Shown here piece by piece: positions 3,694 through 62,136 of a stretch of DNA of 64,000 nucleotides. The position numbers were made by a program, and so were the translations under genes. Origin of the DNA: Gammaproteobacteria bacterium (lineage in GTDB: Bacteria > Pseudomonadota > Gammaproteobacteria > Eutrophobiales > Eutrophobiaceae); contig OZ271833.1 in assembly GCA_965601665.1 (NCBI GenBank), positions 2,146,607-2,210,606 on the forward strand, read 5' to 3'. Each line of letters starts with the position of its first letter. Within the stretch, counting starts at the first letter, position 1. The notes beneath the pieces are model-generated. The model was not told the DNA's origin. It worked only from the letters and a program-made list of their open reading frames with translations, and searched no databases.

Positions 3694-4698
3694 TTATTTC
3701 CAGCCTGCGCGATCCATCAACAACACGGCACGGGCATTAAATTCACCGAGCTTTCCCAGATTCAAGGTGTCTGCCTTGAACTCTCCCCAGCCAGACAAAA
3801 CGGCACTAGTTGCAACACCTTCACGCACCGGAAACTCATGATTGGTTTCACCATACCATTGCTGGGCCTTATCACCGGCAAGGAACTCAAGCAGCTTGAT
3901 GGCGGCAGTTTTGTTTGGCGCATGCTTCGTTATGCCTGCACCACTGACATTCATATGGGTGCCACGGCCGGCCTGGTTCGGCCAAAACAGACTGACCTTA
4001 TGCGCTAATTCAATCTGGTCTGCCTGGTCAGATTCCAGCATACCCGCCAGGTAATACGTGTTAACGAGAGCGACATCGCAAACCCCAACAGCGACCGCCT
4101 TAATCTGATCGCGATCACCTCCCTTTGGACTACGGGCAAAATTATCAACTAGGTCCCTTGCCCATGCTTCGGTCTTGTCTTCACCAAGGTGGGCGACCAG
4201 TGAAGCGACCAAAGACTGATTGTAAACGTTCGAGGAAGAACGAACGCATACCCTGTTCTTCCATATAGCGTCCGCCAGATTTTCATAAGAAGACAGTTCA
4301 CCAGGACTGACACGCTCCGGCGCATACACCATAATGCGAGAACGTAGTGACAAACCATACCATTGTCCATCTGCATCACGGTAGTTAGCCGGTATCAGCG
4401 CATTGAGCAGTTCTGATTTTACCGGTTGAAACAGGCCAAGTTCGCTGGCACGCGTTAAGCGGGCTACGTCAACGGTCAGAAGCATATCTGCAGGGGAATT
4501 TCGTCCTTCCGCCTCCAGGCGCTTGATCAAGGTATCTGCCTCTCCTGTCACCAGGTTTACCTTTATCCCGGTTTGCTCGGTGAAGCGCAGCAATAATGGC
4601 TTAATCAGGTTTTGCTTGCGCGCTGAGTAGATGTTTACTTCTTCTGCAAATACATTCGGCTGGAACAATAACAGGATAATAAAGAGGTACTTCTTCAT
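3694..4698 (-). CDS. fbpA: Fe(3+) ABC transporter periplasmic substrate-binding protein
   Basis: Start trimmed to MKKYLFIILLLFQPNVFA (signal peptide) at 4698. The listed ORF starts at an upstream Met. Confidence 0.8.
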   Translation of the reverse strand: MKKYLFIILLLFQPNVFAEEVNIYSARKQNLIKPLLLRFTEQTGIKVNLVTGEADTLIKRLEAEGRNSPADMLLTVDVARLTRASELGLFQPVKSELLNALIPANYRDADGQWYGLSLRSRIMVYAPERVSPGELSSYENLADAIWKNRVCVRSSSNVYNQSLVASLVAHLGEDKTEAWARDLVDNFARSPKGGDRDQIKAVAVGVCDVALVNTYYLAGMLESDQADQIELAHKVSLFWPNQAGRGTHMNVSGAGITKHAPNKTAAIKLLEFLAGDKAQQWYGETNHEFPVREGVATSAVLSGWGEFKADTLNLGKLGEFNARAVLLMDRAGWK

Positions 4699-4920
4699 AA
4701 CAACCTTGAAAGTGATTCGTCTAAATAGGAGATGAATTATATGGGATTCACACTGTTTTGTTCTATTAACGCTAACAGGCCTCATGCTGTAACGATACAA
4801 TAAAAAAAAGGTGCCATGAGACACCCTGAACATTGCTACCAGAGATGTAGAAGTGTTACTAAAAAATAAATGGGCTACCTTTGTAAAATTCTTGTAGTTT
4901 AATCATTATTCATCTATTGA

Positions 4921-4940
4921 GAATGCGAATCATTATTATC
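4921..4940. promoter_or_regulatory. Fur-box-like site (GAATGCGAATCATTATTATC) between bfd and fbpA
   Basis: Matches the GATAATGATAATCATTATC consensus in about 15 of 19 positions. An overlapping second partial box TTAATCATTATTCATC sits at 4899-4914. Confidence 0.5.
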
Positions 4941-4961
4941 ACTGGAGTAAAAAAAAACCGT

Positions 4962-5159
4962 TTATATTCCCAGTGCTGGCATGCCTTCGAGGTCTTTTTC
5001 CAATGATCGTTGCAAGCAAGCTGCAACATCACAGGCGCAGGATCCACATTGGGTGCTGGCGCCGGTATGGTCTTCCAGTTGACGAATGCTGTTACAACCT
5101 TGATTGACCGCTTTTTCAATATCTGATTCGGTCACGGCATTGCAAACGCATACATACAT
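4962..5159 (-). CDS. bfd: Bacterioferritin-associated ferredoxin (BFD-like [2Fe-2S])
   Basis: 65 aa MYVCVCNAVTE...CGSCACDV with the BFD four-Cys pattern. Located directly downstream of bfr as in other proteobacteria. Confidence 0.85.
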   Translation of the reverse strand: MYVCVCNAVTESDIEKAVNQGCNSIRQLEDHTGASTQCGSCACDVAACLQRSLEKDLEGMPALGI

Positions 5160-5201
5160 AAATTAAGAATCTCCCAGATACTATAAGTAGGAATACTAGT
5201 A

Positions 5202-5220
5202 GTAATGAGAATTATTATCA
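5202..5220. promoter_or_regulatory. Fur-box-like site (TAATGAGAATTATTATC) in the bfd promoter region
   Basis: About 14 of 16 matches to the Fur consensus core, 43-60 bp upstream of the bfd start. bfd is classically Fur-repressed. Confidence 0.55.
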
Positions 5221-5232
5221 ACATAAAAACAC

Positions 5233-5262
5233 AAAAAAAAGGGCAATTATTGCCCTTTTTCT
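5233..5262. terminator. Rho-independent terminator, bidirectional (A8-GGGCAATTATTGCCC-T5)
   Basis: Perfect GGGCAA/TTGCCC stem flanked by an A-run and a T-run, placed after the bfrB stop on the minus strand. Confidence 0.7.
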
Positions 5263-5283
5263 AATTATTTCATTAGAAATCAA

Positions 5284-5751
5284 TTACATCTGGGATTGCA
5301 GATAATTTTCCATGCCAATTTTCTCAATCAAGCCAAGTTGCTGTTCCAGCCAGTAAGCATGGTCTTCTTCTGTGTCCTTAAGTAAAACCTCAAGTAGCTC
5401 CCTGGTCGGGTAGTCTCGTTCAGCTTCACAGATAACGATAGCCTCTTTGAGATTTGCTACCACATCAATCTCCAGCCTGAGATCGCTGGACAACATCTCA
5501 GTCACATCTTTACCTATCTGCAGCCCTTCACGCCTGGTCATATCAGGTGTGCCTTCCAGAAACAGGATGCGCTTGATGATAGTGTCAGCATGCTCAGTTT
5601 CATGCTGCATTTCATGGCCAATATGCTCATAGAGCTTGGTTAGTCCCCAGTCTTCATACATGCGTGAATGAATAAAGTACTGGTCAATTGCCGCCAGTTC
5701 ACCGGCCAGCAATTTATTTAACTGTTTAATTACTTTGTTACTACCTTTCAT
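5284..5751 (-). CDS. bfr: Bacterioferritin subunit (paralog lacking the Met52 haem ligand)
   Basis: [24 protein letters not shown] with ferroxidase ligands conserved (E18, E51, H54, E94, E127, H130 by alignment to E. coli Bfr). The position aligned to Met52 is Thr (HETEHAD). Confidence 0.85.
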
Positions 5752-5769
5752 CGCGATTTACCGCCATCG

Positions 5770-6234
5770 TTACATTTGTGATTGCTGATAGTTGTCGAGG
5801 CCGATGCGTTCAATCAAGTCCAGTTGGGTCTCCAGCCAGTCAACGTGCTCTTCCTCACTCTCCAGGATTGATTCAAATAACTCACGCGATACGAAGTCGT
5901 TGACTGACTCACAATAATCAATTGCGTCGCGCAGATCAGGCACGGCGATGTTTTCCATGTCCAGATCAGCCTGCAGCATTTCCCTGGTATTTTCACCAAT
6001 TTTAAGTTTTCCAAGGTCTTGCAGGTTCGGCAGTCCCTCAAGAAACAGGATCCGTTCGATGAGCTTATCGGCGTGCTTCATTTCGTCGATTGACTCCTCG
6101 TATTCATGGTCACCCAATTGCTTCAAACCCCAGTCTTTATACATGCGAGAGTGCAAAAAGTACTGGTTGATCGCAGTTAATTCGTTCTTAAGTATTTTGT
6201 TCAAATGCTCGATAACTTTCTTGTCGCCTTTCAT
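5770..6234 (-). CDS. bfr: Bacterioferritin subunit (Met52-containing paralog)
   Basis: Start trimmed to [25 protein letters not shown] carries the E51-M52-H54 triad, with high identity to E. coli Bfr. Confidence 0.85.
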
Positions 6235-6320
6235 GATTCGCATCCAATTTGGTTTCAGAGTTAGCTGGAATAATAGGAGTAAATAATGCGATGTCAACAA
6301 TAAGTGCTTGTTTTATAATT

Positions 6321-6337
6321 GATAATTATTATTATTT
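6321..6337. promoter_or_regulatory. Weaker Fur-box-like AT-rich dyad (GATAATTATTATTATTT) upstream of bfr
   Basis: About 13 of 16 matches to the Fur core in the bfr/lemA divergent intergenic region. Confidence 0.3.
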
Positions 6338-6412
6338 ATATTTGATGCGCAGACCGCTCAGCTGAGCAAATAGCGTCTACAATAACCAGACTCACTCGCA
6401 GGAGAGACAAAG

Positions 6413-25173: not shown

Positions 25174-25710
25174 ATGAGTCAGGAACAGGATCGAATATTT
25201 TTTCGCAATTTTTCACTGGTCGTCGGCGGCATTGCCGTCATGATGGTCATATTCTTTCTCGCGGCCAAGGTAGTCAGCCCCGATGCCTACGCTGATGCTG
25301 ATGCGGCTGACGAAAAAGTCGCCGAGATTACCAGGCCAGTTGGAAAGGTCGTTGTTGCCGGTGAAGAGGCGGCTGTCGAGGAAACGGCGATTGCTGAAGC
25401 CGCTGTAGCCGAAGCTGAAACTATGGTTGCTGCGGCAGACACGGGCGGCGGCAAGAGTGGTGAAGAAGTCTATAACGGCTTGTGTAAAAACTGCCACGGC
25501 ATGGCGGCAATGGCGGCGATGATGCCGCAGCTTGGTGACAAGGCGGCCTGGGAACCGCGCATAGCCAAGGGCATTGACAGCTTGTATAACAATGCCATTA
25601 ACGGCTATGCCGGAGAAATGGGCGTTATGCCGGCAAGAGGTGGCAACCCTGCATTATCTGACGACGAAGTTAAGGCTGCCGTTGATTATATCGTCGAAGC
25701 TTCTCAGTAG
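25174..25710 (+). CDS. Membrane-anchored cytochrome c5 family monohaem cytochrome
   Basis: N-terminal TM anchor, Ala/Glu-rich linker, single CKNCHG motif, and a C-terminal ALSDDEVKAAVDYI typical of the c5 family. Confidence 0.8.
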   Translation: MSQEQDRIFFRNFSLVVGGIAVMMVIFFLAAKVVSPDAYADADAADEKVAEITRPVGKVVVAGEEAAVEETAIAEAAVAEAETMVAAADTGGGKSGEEVYNGLCKNCHGMAAMAAMMPQLGDKAAWEPRIAKGIDSLYNNAINGYAGEMGVMPARGGNPALSDDEVKAAVDYIVEASQ

Positions 25711-59724: not shown

Positions 59725-60309
59725 ATGGGTGGTAATTACTTCATACAGGCAGCTGTTTTTTTAATTGAGGTCATCTTCGGCCTCTATATCCTTGCTGTAT
59801 TGTTACGCTTCCTGTTTGCCACCGTAAGGGCCGATTTCCATAACCCACTGTCGCAATTTATCGTTAAGGTAACGAATCCACCGTTAAAGATACTGCGCCG
59901 ATTTATTCCCAGTTACATGGCAATCGACTGGGCAGCCATCGTATTGCTGTTGGCCGTGCAGGCACTGGAGATCGTATTAACTGCGCTGGTAGTCGCCGGC
60001 ATGATACCGGCACCCATGGGCATCTTCGTCATGACCTGTGCTGAATTGTTAAAAACGCTGGTGTGGCTATACATTATCGTTGTCTTTATCCAGGTGGCGA
60101 TTAGCTGGATCAACCCGCATGCCTATAACCCGTTGACGGTAATCATGCACCAGTTAACGGAACCGGTGATGAAACCCGCTCGGAGAATGATTCCACCTGC
60201 CGGCGGCTTCGACTGGTCGCCACTGGTGGTGCTAATTGGGCTTAACCTGATGCTGATATTGCTGGTAACACCGTTGACGGATATAGGGCGGCGGTTGCTA
60301 ATAGGATAA
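59725..60309 (+). CDS. yggT: YggT-family membrane protein
   Basis: Four-TM protein of 194 aa with duplicated YGGT repeats, after proC. Confidence 0.8.
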   Translation: MGGNYFIQAAVFLIEVIFGLYILAVLLRFLFATVRADFHNPLSQFIVKVTNPPLKILRRFIPSYMAIDWAAIVLLLAVQALEIVLTALVVAGMIPAPMGIFVMTCAELLKTLVWLYIIVVFIQVAISWINPHAYNPLTVIMHQLTEPVMKPARRMIPPAGGFDWSPLVVLIGLNLMLILLVTPLTDIGRRLLIG

Positions 60310-60370
60310 GTTTCTACTTGTCGTGATGACCAATCTATTTTCAATAATCGGTTTCGCCTTTGAACGGCGA

Positions 60371-60396
60371 CTTACTTTTCTTCATAGAAAAGTAAG
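60371..60396. repeat. Perfect 11-bp inverted repeat hairpin CTTACTTTTCT-tcat-AGAAAAGTAAG
   Basis: Read directly from the sequence. Lies 60 bp after the yggT stop at the edge of a compositionally atypical islet, with no adjacent T-run. Confidence 0.5.
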
Positions 60397-60485
60397 CAAA
60401 AGAACTTTCCCCTACTGTCATGGCCTGCGGCTCCCTTCGTCGTCATCCGTCACGACGGGCCGCGCATAGCGTCTTCCCTGACGCA

Positions 60486-60516
60486 ATGCACTCAATTGTG
60501 CATCCATGCACAATTG
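60486..60516. promoter_or_regulatory. Operator-like palindrome array ATGCAC-t-CAATTGTGCAT-cc-ATGCACAATTG
   Basis: A 24-bp near-perfect palindrome (CAATTGTGCATccATGCACAATTG) plus an extra ATGCAC half-site, upstream of the islet genes. Confidence 0.45.
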
Positions 60517-60726
60517 CCCCTGTTCCAGATGACTCCTTAGCATGACATAACGGGGGATAATGATAGGATCGGCAAAGTGAGCCTGCTGGATATTGAGTAA
60601 AAGGTGGGCTACAGTTAATAAACATTTGATTATAAGGAGATTATCAATATGTCCCGCCAAACCACCTATATAACATTATGCGAAACTCGGTCTCCCTAAT
60701 ATATTGTTAAATGGCTCAATAAAGAT

Positions 60727-60894
60727 ATGACGAAAATACGGAAATCAACGCTCGGAATATTTTTGACAGCGATACTTCTATACCTACTCTCACCCGCGTT
60801 AGGCTTAGCTGTAGGTTTCCTGGGCGTAATCTTAGAAGTTTTTGCCTGGATTTCATGGATCAAAGAGTACAACGAAGAGAACAAGGAAAATTAA
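60727..60894 (+). CDS. Small hydrophobic membrane peptide (55 aa), not in the supplied ORF track
   Basis: My own translation is MTKIRKSTLGIFLTAILLYLLSPALGLAVGFLGVILEVFAWISWIKEYNEENKEN. Basic N-terminus, one or two TM helices and an acidic tail, in an AT-rich islet. Weak RBS. Confidence 0.35.
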   Translation: MTKIRKSTLGIFLTAILLYLLSPALGLAVGFLGVILEVFAWISWIKEYNEENKEN

Positions 60895-60943
60895 TGGCAG
60901 CTTCTTGCTATAAAAATCTAGAAATAGCCAACCATTTAACAAG

Positions 60944-61261
60944 TTGCGCAATTGGGACAAAGTACTGCGCACTTCGCCCATTAGCAAGGCGTTATATGCA
61001 TTAAATAAAATGGATGTGCTAAGTGAAAAAGACCGAAAACATAGGAAAGAGCTATTCGAGAAAGTGAATAAGCTCAGAAAGGAATATGGAGAAGCTCCAA
61101 TACCTTATGTAGAAGATCCTGAATTAATATATTGTTCTTTTTGTGGAAAAGTACCATCCGAAATTGAATCAATGATACAGGGAATCGGGGTATTCATTTG
61201 TAATGAATGTATTGTTATGTCTAAAGAGTTGATTGATGAGGTATCAAACAATGCAGAATAA
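60944..61261 (+). CDS. Stand-alone ClpX-type C4 zinc-finger protein with helical N-terminal extension
   Basis: C-terminal 40 aa IYCSFCGKVPSEIESMIQGIGVFICNECIVMSKELI aligns with the ClpX N-domain [36 protein letters not shown]. No AAA+ module. The listed start is TTG, with an alternative ATG at 61010. Confidence 0.6.
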   Translation: MRNWDKVLRTSPISKALYALNKMDVLSEKDRKHRKELFEKVNKLRKEYGEAPIPYVEDPELIYCSFCGKVPSEIESMIQGIGVFICNECIVMSKELIDEVSNNAE

Positions 61262-61362
61262 TGCATATAACAAGTCACTCCACAGCGACTTGAAGACACA
61301 ACTGCAGGAAAGCGAAGGAGCAGTGAACTCGCTATCAGGCGCGAAGTTAAGTTAGAAAAGAA

Positions 61363-62136
61363 TTATAAAGTTAGATCATAATCCGTAATCAACGGCGCAT
61401 GGTCCGAAAAGCGTTCTTCCTTGTAAATATCAACTGACTTGATCCTGTCTTTTAAACCGGGCGTCACTACCTGGTAATCAATCCGCCAGCCCACGTTCTT
61501 TGCCCACGCCTGGCCACGGTTAGACCACCATGTGTATTGGTCTGGCTCCTGGTTAATGACCCTGAATGAATCCACCATACCCACCTCGTCGAATACCTTA
61601 TCCATCCAGGCACGTTCTTCCGGCAGGAAACCGGAGTTCTTTTGGTTGGAGCGCCAGTTCTTTAGATCGATTTGCTTATGGGCAATGTTCCAGTCGCCAC
61701 AGATAATATATTCACGCCGGCGCCGGCGCATCTTTTTCATCAACGGCAGGAAGAAATCGAGGAAGTCATACTTGATTTGCTGACGCTCATCACCGGAAGT
61801 TCCTGATGGCAGATACAAAGACACGATACTGAGCTTGCCGAAATCCGCTTGCAGGTAACGCCCTTCCTGATCGGCAACAGGGAAGCCAAGCAAGTCAGTC
61901 ACCTTGTCCGGCTTGTTTCGGCTATAAATGGCCGTACCGCTGTAACCCTTTTTCTCGGCATCGTTAAAGAAAGCATGATAGCCATCAGGCTGCAGAATTT
62001 CCTCGCCAAGCTGGCTGGTCTGGGCCTTGGTTTCCTGTACGCAAACCACATCGGCGTTAGACTTTTGCAACCAGTTAAAAAAACCTTTCCTGTGTGCGGC
62101 CCGTATGCCGTTCAGGTTAACGCTAACGACTCTCAA
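61363..62136 (-). CDS. crc: ExoIII-family protein, Crc-like (catabolite repression control protein homolog)
   Basis: MRVVSVNLNGIRAAHRKGFFNWLQKSNADVVCVQETKA closely parallels the Pseudomonas Crc N-terminus. Divergent from pyrE as in Pseudomonas, and second exoIII-family gene in the window. Confidence 0.65.
   Translation of the reverse strand: MRVVSVNLNGIRAAHRKGFFNWLQKSNADVVCVQETKAQTSQLGEEILQPDGYHAFFNDAEKKGYSGTAIYSRNKPDKVTDLLGFPVADQEGRYLQADFGKLSIVSLYLPSGTSGDERQQIKYDFLDFFLPLMKKMRRRRREYIICGDWNIAHKQIDLKNWRSNQKNSGFLPEERAWMDKVFDEVGMVDSFRVINQEPDQYTWWSNRGQAWAKNVGWRIDYQVVTPGLKDRIKSVDIYKEERFSDHAPLITDYDLTL

Follow-up and report, generated by a model that had tools for sequence, protein, structure and literature searches.

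An AT-rich islet between yggT and an exonuclease III-family gene probably consists of integrase-less integron cassettes, one of which encodes a stand-alone ClpX-type zinc finger

Why do a free ClpX-type zinc finger and a small hydrophobic peptide lie between two housekeeping genes of a gammaproteobacterium? The locus that raises this question is an interval of 1053 nucleotides (nt) between yggT and a convergent exonuclease III (ExoIII)-family gene, with pyrE beyond the latter. It was analysed within a 64,000-nt stretch of DNA (the window) from Gammaproteobacteria bacterium (assembly GCA_965601665.1, contig OZ271833.1, positions 2,146,607 to 2,210,606). The original prediction, made from the letters and their open reading frames (ORFs), had described an AT-rich islet inserted between core genes, with a hairpin, an operator-like palindrome array, a gene for a 55-amino-acid (aa) peptide and a 105-aa protein ending in a ClpX-type zinc finger. 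The hairpin, the palindrome and both ORFs were found where it had placed them. Our results suggest that the islet is a known kind of element, a set of integron cassettes without an integrase, which is the best explanation overall (rough probability 0.75). The features are listed in Table 1.

Table 1. Features of the yggT to ExoIII interval and its borders (positions are those of the window)
Feature	Position	Strand	Basis
yggT	59725-60309	+	Pfam YGGT match
Terminator-like/REP-like hairpin TCGCC-N7-GGCGA, just 3' of yggT, native DNA	60354-60370	+	terminator scan
11-bp perfect hairpin, CTTACTTTTCT tcat AGAAAAGTAAG	arms 60371-60381/60386-60396	strandless	inverted-repeat scan
Structured RNA resembling Rfam TwoAYGGAY	60396-60560, core 60435-60540	-	RF01731
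Sigma-70-like promoter match (candidate), ATGACA-16-TG-TAGGAT, at native/foreign junction, reading into leader	60542-60569	+	motif scan
Conserved leader abutting cassette 1	60578-60705	+	similarity to L085
Degenerate attC-like or attI-like junction, ATATAACA...GTTAAAT; recombination point G|TT at 60706/60707	60668-60712	+	R1, 6-8 bits
Gene cassette 1: 55-aa peptide gene and its own attC	60707-60991	+	boundaries as in L083/L084
Gene for 55-aa hydrophobic peptide	60727-60894	+	ORF list
Intact attC: R'' ATTTAAC, spacer AAGTT, L boxes, spacer AAGGC, R' GTTATAT	60934-60997	+	R1
105-aa ORF, TTG start	60944-61261	+	ORF list; public gene call P0001
Gene cassette 2: zinc finger gene and decayed attC; right end uncertain	60992-61346	+	boundaries as in L001/L002, L085
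83-aa protein (probable product), N-terminal helix and ClpX-type C4 zinc-binding domain	61010-61261	+	ATG 61010, homologues
Degenerate attC candidate, ATATAACAAG...GTTAAGT, ending about 10 nt before the stop of convergent xth/crc	61265-61352	+	R1, 7.1 bits
ExoIII-family gene (xth/crc position, convergent to islet)	61363-62136	-	TIGR00633

Probable cassette structure of the islet

Integron recombination sites (attC) were searched for with a covariance model, R1, built from 13 attC sites of the loci L083, L084, L001, L089 and L091, none of them from the window. These training sites, and the arrays taken as bona fide, were chosen by canonical attC features. In the whole window R1 gave a single strong match (40.4 bits, E 1.3e-6), located exactly between both ORFs, and its unpaired spacers are the same as in the training sites. 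When 631 kb of related genomic loci were searched, no match with E < 1 was obtained and the top score was 17.2 bits. Minimum-energy single-strand DNA folds of the attC candidates in the window did not produce the classic hairpin; folding alone would therefore miss the intact attC, and a covariance model was needed. A weak R1 match at 25584-25630 on the plus strand (13.5 bits, E about 1), with TAACAA...GGCGTTA ends, is probably due to chance.

Both ORFs are bracketed by perfect inverted repeats, TTGTTAAATGG / CCATTTAACAA around the peptide gene and GTTATATGCATTA / TAATGCATATAAC around the zinc finger gene. These repeats are 11 and 13 nt long and carry the integron core motifs GTTRRRY and RYYYAAC. 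Such flanking repeats are expected of a linear cassette, because its first bases derive from the R' box of its own attC. The cassette boundaries were then compared with those of homologous cassettes. For cassette 1, the start GGCGTTAAATGG and the R'' box CCATTTAACAAGTT are identical in the window and in L083/L084, and the DNA identity to the homologous cassette there is 78% over window positions 60706-60945. For cassette 2, the start TTATATGCATTA and the R'' box TAATGCATATAAC are the same in L001/L002 and in L085, and the DNA identity to L001 is 79% over window positions 60989-61273. The zinc finger cassette of L001/L002 starts with GCGTTATATGCATTAA and has TAATGCATATAAC as its R'' box, after which a classic 60-nt attC hairpin follows. 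These results suggest that the right ~800 nt of the interval (about 60561-61352) are integron material, a leader of ~130 nt followed by two promoterless gene cassettes in the canonical orientation, and the cassette and attC nature of this DNA is very probable.

The end sites of the array appear to be decayed or atypical. Both the left junction and the right candidate keep their R boxes only, and the score of the right one was not significant. Its left half is common to L085, and the homologous loci L001, L089, L091 and L145 have an intact attC at the equivalent position. As one significant attC was found and the end sites reached 6-8 bits, it is uncertain whether the element is a set of clustered attC sites without an integron integrase (CALIN) or one such site on its own (SALIN). 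By the usual definitions it is a SALIN on a strict attC count, or a decayed CALIN of two cassettes.

The composition of the interval was measured. The GC content of 60561-61362 was 38.0%, versus 49.4% for the window (z = -3.65; lowest 0.4% of 802-nt windows), and that of 60310-60560 was 48.2%. The GC content at third codon positions was 0.27 for the zinc finger gene and 0.61 for yggT. Four perfect inverted repeats of at least 11 nt were observed in the interval versus 0.11 expected, and none of 500 dinucleotide-preserving shuffles reached four. The palindromes and the low GC content go beyond chance. The interval is composite, with a native left quarter (60310-60560) and ~800 nt of AT-rich foreign DNA on the right, so that the AT-richness first ascribed to all of it holds for the right part and not for the left quarter. 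The cassette reading explains in full what looked odd in the raw sequence of the AT-rich islet. The second lowest-GC stretch of the window (4500-6400) contains bfd and two bacterioferritin genes with AT-rich spacers, gave no attC match and looks ordinary.

To place the interval among relatives, 80 related loci around yggT-xth/crc were compared. The spacer between the two genes ranges from 18 to about 2400 nt, and neither islet protein is encoded in any of the 80 loci, including the closest relative recovered, L003. The latter is a gammaproteobacterial metagenome-assembled genome with 85-87% protein identity in yggT, xth/crc and pyrE, and its 643-nt spacer holds only hairpins and two copies of a structured RNA. 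The right part of the interval was absent from 80/80 loci. An insertion between core genes, as originally proposed, was thus supported, and the islet is not an ordinary spacer present in all relatives. By this comparison the right part appears as a foreign, lineage-specific insertion.

Given that the two ORFs are small, adjacent and co-oriented, we were interested in whether they belong together. Both are taken as real genes because the ratio of nonsynonymous to synonymous substitution rates (dN/dS) against homologues is about 0.1 (0.095 for the peptide against P0003, about 0.1 for the zinc finger gene). P0003 is the only relative of the peptide (85% identical) and is located in L083/L084, in an array with at least seven attC sites where small co-oriented ORFs are separated by imperfect palindromes of the type ...TAACAAG...GGCGTTA.... 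The peptide had no family match in Pfam, PHROGs, PADLOC or NCBIfam, and by its sequence it is a conserved, strongly hydrophobic small protein, presumably of the membrane. It had been suggested that zinc finger protein and peptide form one toxin/antitoxin-like or phage-derived module, in which the peptide would be the toxin and the free finger would control the peptide or ClpXP. However, the intact attC lies between the two genes, and the homologues of each, with identical cassette boundaries, adjoin unrelated genes. Moreover, homologues of the peptide and of the zinc finger protein co-occurred in 0 of 146 loci, and the PADLOC anti-phage defence models matched neither protein nor two homologues. 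With separate cassettes and no co-occurrence, a toxin/antitoxin-like pair is therefore not supported, and the two genes are very probably independent, presumably also in function. As for phages, small stand-alone proteins with a ClpX-type zinc-binding domain (ZBD) do occur in the phage families phrog_6797, 12435 and 5259, but no phage genes were found within the islet. A joint module of either kind is very improbable.

The stand-alone ClpX-type zinc finger and its family

The protein product of cassette 2 was examined. The 105-aa ORF is present as described, whereas the likely product is shorter. Homologues of 77-87 aa start at the ATG at 61010, and the first 22 codons of the 105-aa call lie within the attC; the product is therefore probably the 83-aa protein, and the 105-aa call would be 22 codons too long. 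The Pfam model PF06689 (zf-C4_ClpX) matched with 48.5 bits versus a cut-off of 27, and the NCBIfam ClpX models gave 31-34 bits, below their cut-offs of 359-371. Sixteen residues follow the last Cys of the protein, which has no AAA+ module. The best PDB sequence matches were those of the Escherichia coli ClpX ZBD, with 44-46% identity over the ZBD. An AlphaFold 2 (AF2) model from a 28-sequence family alignment (predicted local distance difference test score, pLDDT, 86.8) consisted of a helix (residues 6-25), a linker and the ZBD, and the modelled ZBD superposed on 2DS6/2DS7/2DS8 at 0.5-1.2 Å. A ClpX-type C4 zinc finger without an AAA+ module, as in the original prediction, is thus borne out by the Pfam score, by the match of the ZBD fold and by the lack of room for an ATPase.

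Could the ORF be what is left of a disrupted full-length clpX? The ZBD is close enough to that of E. coli ClpX to raise the question. However, about 100 nt separate the stop codon from the convergent gene, into which no ATPase remnant fits, and the ZBD is C-terminal, behind a family-specific helix, a layout shared by at least 28 homologues of 68-101 aa. In addition, the dN/dS of about 0.1 indicates purifying selection, and the gene sits within cassette boundaries. The protein represents a family of ~80 aa, and an origin as a clpX fragment can practically be discounted.

Searches with single proteins in a word index gave 1-2 relatives each, and the family emerged from an exhaustive HMMER search followed by a profile. 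The exhaustive search found 3580 representative proteins with the domain at E <= 0.001. Most of the top 150 domain matches were small proteins other than ClpX, and many of them carry two to four copies in tandem; with the domain so widespread, a free ClpX finger is nothing unusual as such. The nearest relative of the islet protein is P0002 (L001/L002), with 75% identity and 83 aa. Within the aligned family the four Cys are kept in 27/28 members (C42, C64 and C67 invariant, C45 nearly so), so the conservation of the zinc ligands that the original prediction had named as a test was found. In the N-terminal helix N20 and R23 are invariant and G27 is nearly so; a P-x-P-[YF] linker and then the finger follow.

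The genomic setting of the family was also determined. P0002, P0233, P0188 and P0196 sit in arrays with an attC directly 3' of the gene. By R1, an attC precedes or follows the family gene in L001/2, L089/90, L091, L093, L094, L118 and L145/6. A cruder palindrome score (AAC...GTT palindrome), which recognises only some attC sites and served as a second, conservative count, added an attC flank for L104, L105 and L110. Taking R1 and the palindrome score together, an attC flank was found for at least 10 of the 18 distinct family loci, with a control rate of the palindrome score of 1% per window of sequence. These results indicate that the ~80-aa proteins with helix and ClpX-type ZBD form a coherent family that is under purifying selection and carried mostly as cassettes. 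Literature searches on zf-C4_ClpX, PF06689 and ClpX C4-type zinc turned up no work on the function of stand-alone proteins.

Several other observations concern this family and its relatives. In L002, a group II intron (421-850; RF02001 126 bits, RF01998 46.8 bits) lies within the attC after the zinc finger cassette, and its 5' GTGTG begins right after ...CCCGAATCG. One class of group II introns targets attC sites. In P0228 of L144 (2384-2635), CSFYGN stands in place of CSFCGK, so that one zinc ligand is lost; behind its gene, which overlaps an opposite-strand gene, lies a truncated attC. P0228 is probably a decaying copy. In L145 (1-560) an attC array opens with the zinc finger cassette, which lies ~450 nt from a gpmB-like gene for a histidine phosphatase; no integrase was found between the two, making it another integrase-less array. 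Finally, small proteins of two to six tandem ClpX-type fingers without an ATPase were met, among them P0004-P0014 and P0051; P0004 has four copies in 230 aa. This tandem architecture appears to be unstudied.

We were particularly interested in what such a protein could do. The ClpX ZBD docks SspB, RssB, trigger factor and lambda O via a hydrophobic patch that includes F16 and I46 (PMC7804408). In the islet family, F44 (equivalent to ClpX F16) is invariant and L74 (equivalent to ClpX I46) is hydrophobic in 28/28 members. The zinc finger protein may thus mimic the ClpX N-domain, keeping its fold and hydrophobic ligand patch. As a free finger it could titrate adaptors or those substrates that depend on the N-domain, or it could pair with the N-domains of ClpX, and the conserved N-terminal helix might supply a second, family-specific contact. 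The idea of a ClpXP modulator, put forward in the original prediction, can reasonably be inferred from the sequence. We regard the specific role of a decoy of the ClpX N-domain as tentative. Still more doubtful is the wider proposal that the cassette-borne family as a whole mimics the ClpX docking domain and, on capture, reprogrammes the substrate choice of ClpXP by titrating adaptors or substrates. If that were true, a cassette could block ClpX-dependent phages or transposons (Mu-like, lambda-like) or stabilise ClpXP-labile proteins, and protease retargeting would be a trait traded through integrons.

On the other hand, the ZBD may serve as a dimerisation or zinc-ribbon scaffold, and the protein would then be an adaptor that reaches ClpXP via its N-helix, another kind of regulator, or the partner of a defence protein. 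Thousands of non-ClpX proteins contain the ZBD, frequently as 2-4 tandem copies or in fusion with other domains, which points in this direction, and the invariant N20 and R23 and near-invariant G27 of the N-helix imply a ligand of its own. A mere scaffold would be at odds with the retention of the ClpX ligand-patch residues. For a defence partner, the candidate is a TIR_2 gene located 74 nt downstream of the zinc finger gene in L085; however, this neighbour occurs in one locus group only, and in arrays the zinc finger gene stands alone as its own cassette. The scaffold or adaptor role is possible and about as likely as that of a decoy. The TIR_2-domain gene itself (L085 6326-7264, also in L086) encodes 312 aa in the locus group that shares the leader of the window, and the two genes could be a functional pair or a coincidence.

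Leader, proposed acquisition and native flank

The leader upstream of cassette 1 was compared with that of L085. Window positions 60578-60713 and L085 5848-5984 share 71% identity. In L085 the leader runs directly into the zinc finger cassette start GTTATATGCATTA (protein P0161, 65% identical), while in the window the peptide cassette is interposed between the leader and the zinc finger cassette. Integrons take up new cassettes at this position, so that the leader acts as an attI-type junction would. It contains a Shine-Dalgarno sequence AAGGAG (60634-60639) and a 16-codon ORF (60649-60699) whose stop lies a few nt before the G|TT. AAGGAG, ATG, 16 codons and stop are kept in both leader copies despite indels, and the peptide sequence is not conserved. 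The leader is a candidate attI-like or expression leader; with two sequences, the conservation of its ORF may be taken as a lead, not a finding.

From these data a course of events can be proposed. An integron integrase would have placed the cassettes at this locus, and the peptide cassette would have entered at the G|TT between the leader and the zinc finger cassette. As the array has one intact attC and no integrase in its vicinity, it would now be essentially fixed. Transcripts may begin where native and foreign DNA meet. The cassettes are without good ribosome-binding sites, and translation of the 16-codon ORF may assist ribosomes in getting to them.

A source of the integrase was looked for in the window. 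By Pfam, no tyrosine recombinase was found in the flanking ORFs or in 30 window ORFs between 108 and 684 aa long, a set that takes in all ORFs of 280-427 aa. A complete integron (intI, adjacent attI and the promoter Pc) was thus not found in the 64-kb window: this search gave no intI, the leader is a candidate attI only, and no intI pseudogene was found at the junction. These absences would fit an integrase encoded elsewhere that inserted the cassettes directly at a non-att site (attG-type, giving a SALIN or small CALIN), the leader then being inserted DNA such as a third, decayed cassette. Integrase-driven insertion outside att sites has been shown, and was proposed as an origin of SALINs and two-cassette CALINs (Loot et al., bioRxiv 10.1101/2022.09.11.507474). 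The leader also terminates in an ATATAAC...GTTAAAT pair. However, it is common to two genomic contexts, abuts the first cassette in both and received a new cassette exactly at the junction, which is more attI-like. An attG-type insertion is thus possible, if less than probable; leader-like sequence was found in those two contexts only.

Several points weigh against the account of integrase-less cassettes with an attI-like leader and a ClpX-like protein. One attC only is significant, and the array ends score 6-8 bits, so their exact positions are uncertain. The yardstick for R1 and for the arrays taken as bona fide was canonical attC features rather than IntegronFinder or intI linkage. Neither an integrase nor a recognised attI was found in the window. 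Outside the window, an attI-like leader is backed by a single locus group, L085-L088, in which no attC or integrase was detectable. Promoter matches in the region numbered 3, versus 3.0 expected by chance. For the protein, the predicted template modelling score (pTM) of the AF2 model is only 0.49, so that the arrangement of helix and ZBD is uncertain, and the subclade of the window has GIG where ClpX has GPS.

The native left quarter has a content of its own. On the minus strand, RF01731 (TwoAYGGAY) matched 60435-60540 with 42.8 bits, just under its gathering score of 43 (E 1e-5). The RNA folds with -90.8 kcal/mol (z = -6.55), and its hairpin loops are AUGGAU in the first and AGGGAA in the second, with a GGA motif in both. 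The 11-bp palindrome arms at 60493-60503/60506-60516 form the first of these hairpins. The element of L003 is 85% identical to the window RNA (RF01731 40.6 bits, below the gathering score of 43), and in hairpin 1 the two differ by one compensatory change, U-A to C-G. A covariance model built from the window and L003 copies, R2, scored 192 bits on the window RNA. With R2, L003 was found to have two copies head to head, a well conserved one at 4900-5070 (minus strand) and a diverged one at 5069-5236 (plus strand). The window retains only the copy pointing towards yggT, and the islet sits in place of the one that points towards xth/crc in L003. A simple inversion of the RNA relative to L003 was considered and is not required, since L003 has both orientations. 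In more distant relatives, with spacers of 570-1010 nt, no copy was detected by R2 or at Rfam gathering thresholds, and the conservation of the RNA rests on two genomes. It is a candidate CsrA/RsmA-titrating small RNA (sRNA) in native DNA, and alternatively may be a structured repeat rather than an Rsm-type sRNA.

Two further hairpins accompany this RNA. The type TCGCC-N7-GGCGA, present once in the window, occurs four times in the homologous spacer of L003 (4740-5420), and window 60338-60382 aligns to L003 5302-5259 at 82%; it looks like a repetitive extragenic palindromic (REP)-type repeat family of the host lineage. Directly downstream of the minus-strand RNA comes the hairpin at 60371-60396, a 12-bp stem in the fold of that strand; it probably serves as a terminator in both directions or as a stabiliser. 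L003 carries an analogous hairpin, plus the TCGCC-N7-GGCGA type, after each of its RNA copies. Both hairpins would thus behave like terminator/REP-type elements. The palindrome array that had been likened to operators belongs to the minus-strand RNA and to these hairpins, and does not represent operators of the islet genes.

Among the flanking genes, pilT, yggS, proC, yggT and pyrE were verified by Pfam, and a slmA-like gene is also present. The gene at 61363-62136 matched exodeoxyribonuclease III (TIGR00633) with 268.8 bits versus a cut-off of 99, and its label crc, given in the original prediction, is only a positional guess.

Comparison with known systems

CALINs and SALINs are attC sites and cassettes without an integron integrase (Cury et al. 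2016, PMC4889954; IntegronFinder 2.0; Loot et al., bioRxiv 10.1101/2022.09.11.507474). Like them, the islet has promoterless single-gene cassettes in one orientation, an attC with R''/R' boxes and an imperfect palindrome, and no integrase nearby; it is small (two cassettes), chromosomal between housekeeping genes, and lower in GC than its host. Unlike them, it has one intact attC with decayed outer sites, and a conserved leader with a short ORF, which lies outside the CALIN/SALIN definition. As an element it is ordinary, given that integrase-less attC and cassette remnants are common in bacterial chromosomes and are catalogued under these names. Nothing in it is categorically new; what is uncharacterised is the protein family.

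The protein was compared with the N-terminal ZBD of ClpX (PDB 1OVX, 2DS5-2DS8). Both have the C-x2-C...C-x2-C pattern and the F16/I46 positions, with the 0.5-1.2 Å root mean square deviation extending over about 40 residues. In contrast to ClpX, the islet protein has no AAA+ module, its domain is C-terminal behind a conserved 20-residue helix and the P-x-P-[YF] linker, and its gene is on a mobile cassette. As adaptors and substrates are known to dock on the isolated ClpX domain, a concrete hypothesis that is cheap to test follows for the helix and finger family.

For the leader, the relevant system is ORF-11 in the attI1 site of class 1 integrons, a short ORF whose translation raises the expression of cassettes without a ribosome-binding site. 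The islet leader likewise has a strong Shine-Dalgarno sequence and a short ORF ending a few nt before the first cassette, and is followed by cassette genes without good ribosome-binding sites. The leader has no sequence relation to ORF-11 and no adjacent intI, a comparable role would be putative, and its conservation rests on two sequences.

The minus-strand RNA resembles TwoAYGGAY, as well as CsrB/RsmY/RsmZ, in having two hairpins with GGA loop motifs in a long closing stem, and in being intergenic and gammaproteobacterial. The TwoAYGGAY family has been predicted as a CsrA-binding sRNA (PMC4333381). The window RNA differs from it in scoring below the gathering threshold and in lacking the long external stem of the model; it lies outside the islet, and both its strand and its existence as a separate transcript are predicted. 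The short, apparently translated leader and the neighbouring Rsm-like RNA may be taken as leads on the expression of such arrays and on their landing sites.

The last comparison concerns the fate of ClpXP substrates. The anti-adaptors IraD, IraM and IraP bind the adaptor RssB and have no ZBD. The outcome proposed for the islet protein would be the same as theirs, with a small protein shifting which substrates reach ClpXP. The mechanism would differ, since the islet protein would act by mimicry of the docking domain of the protease itself.

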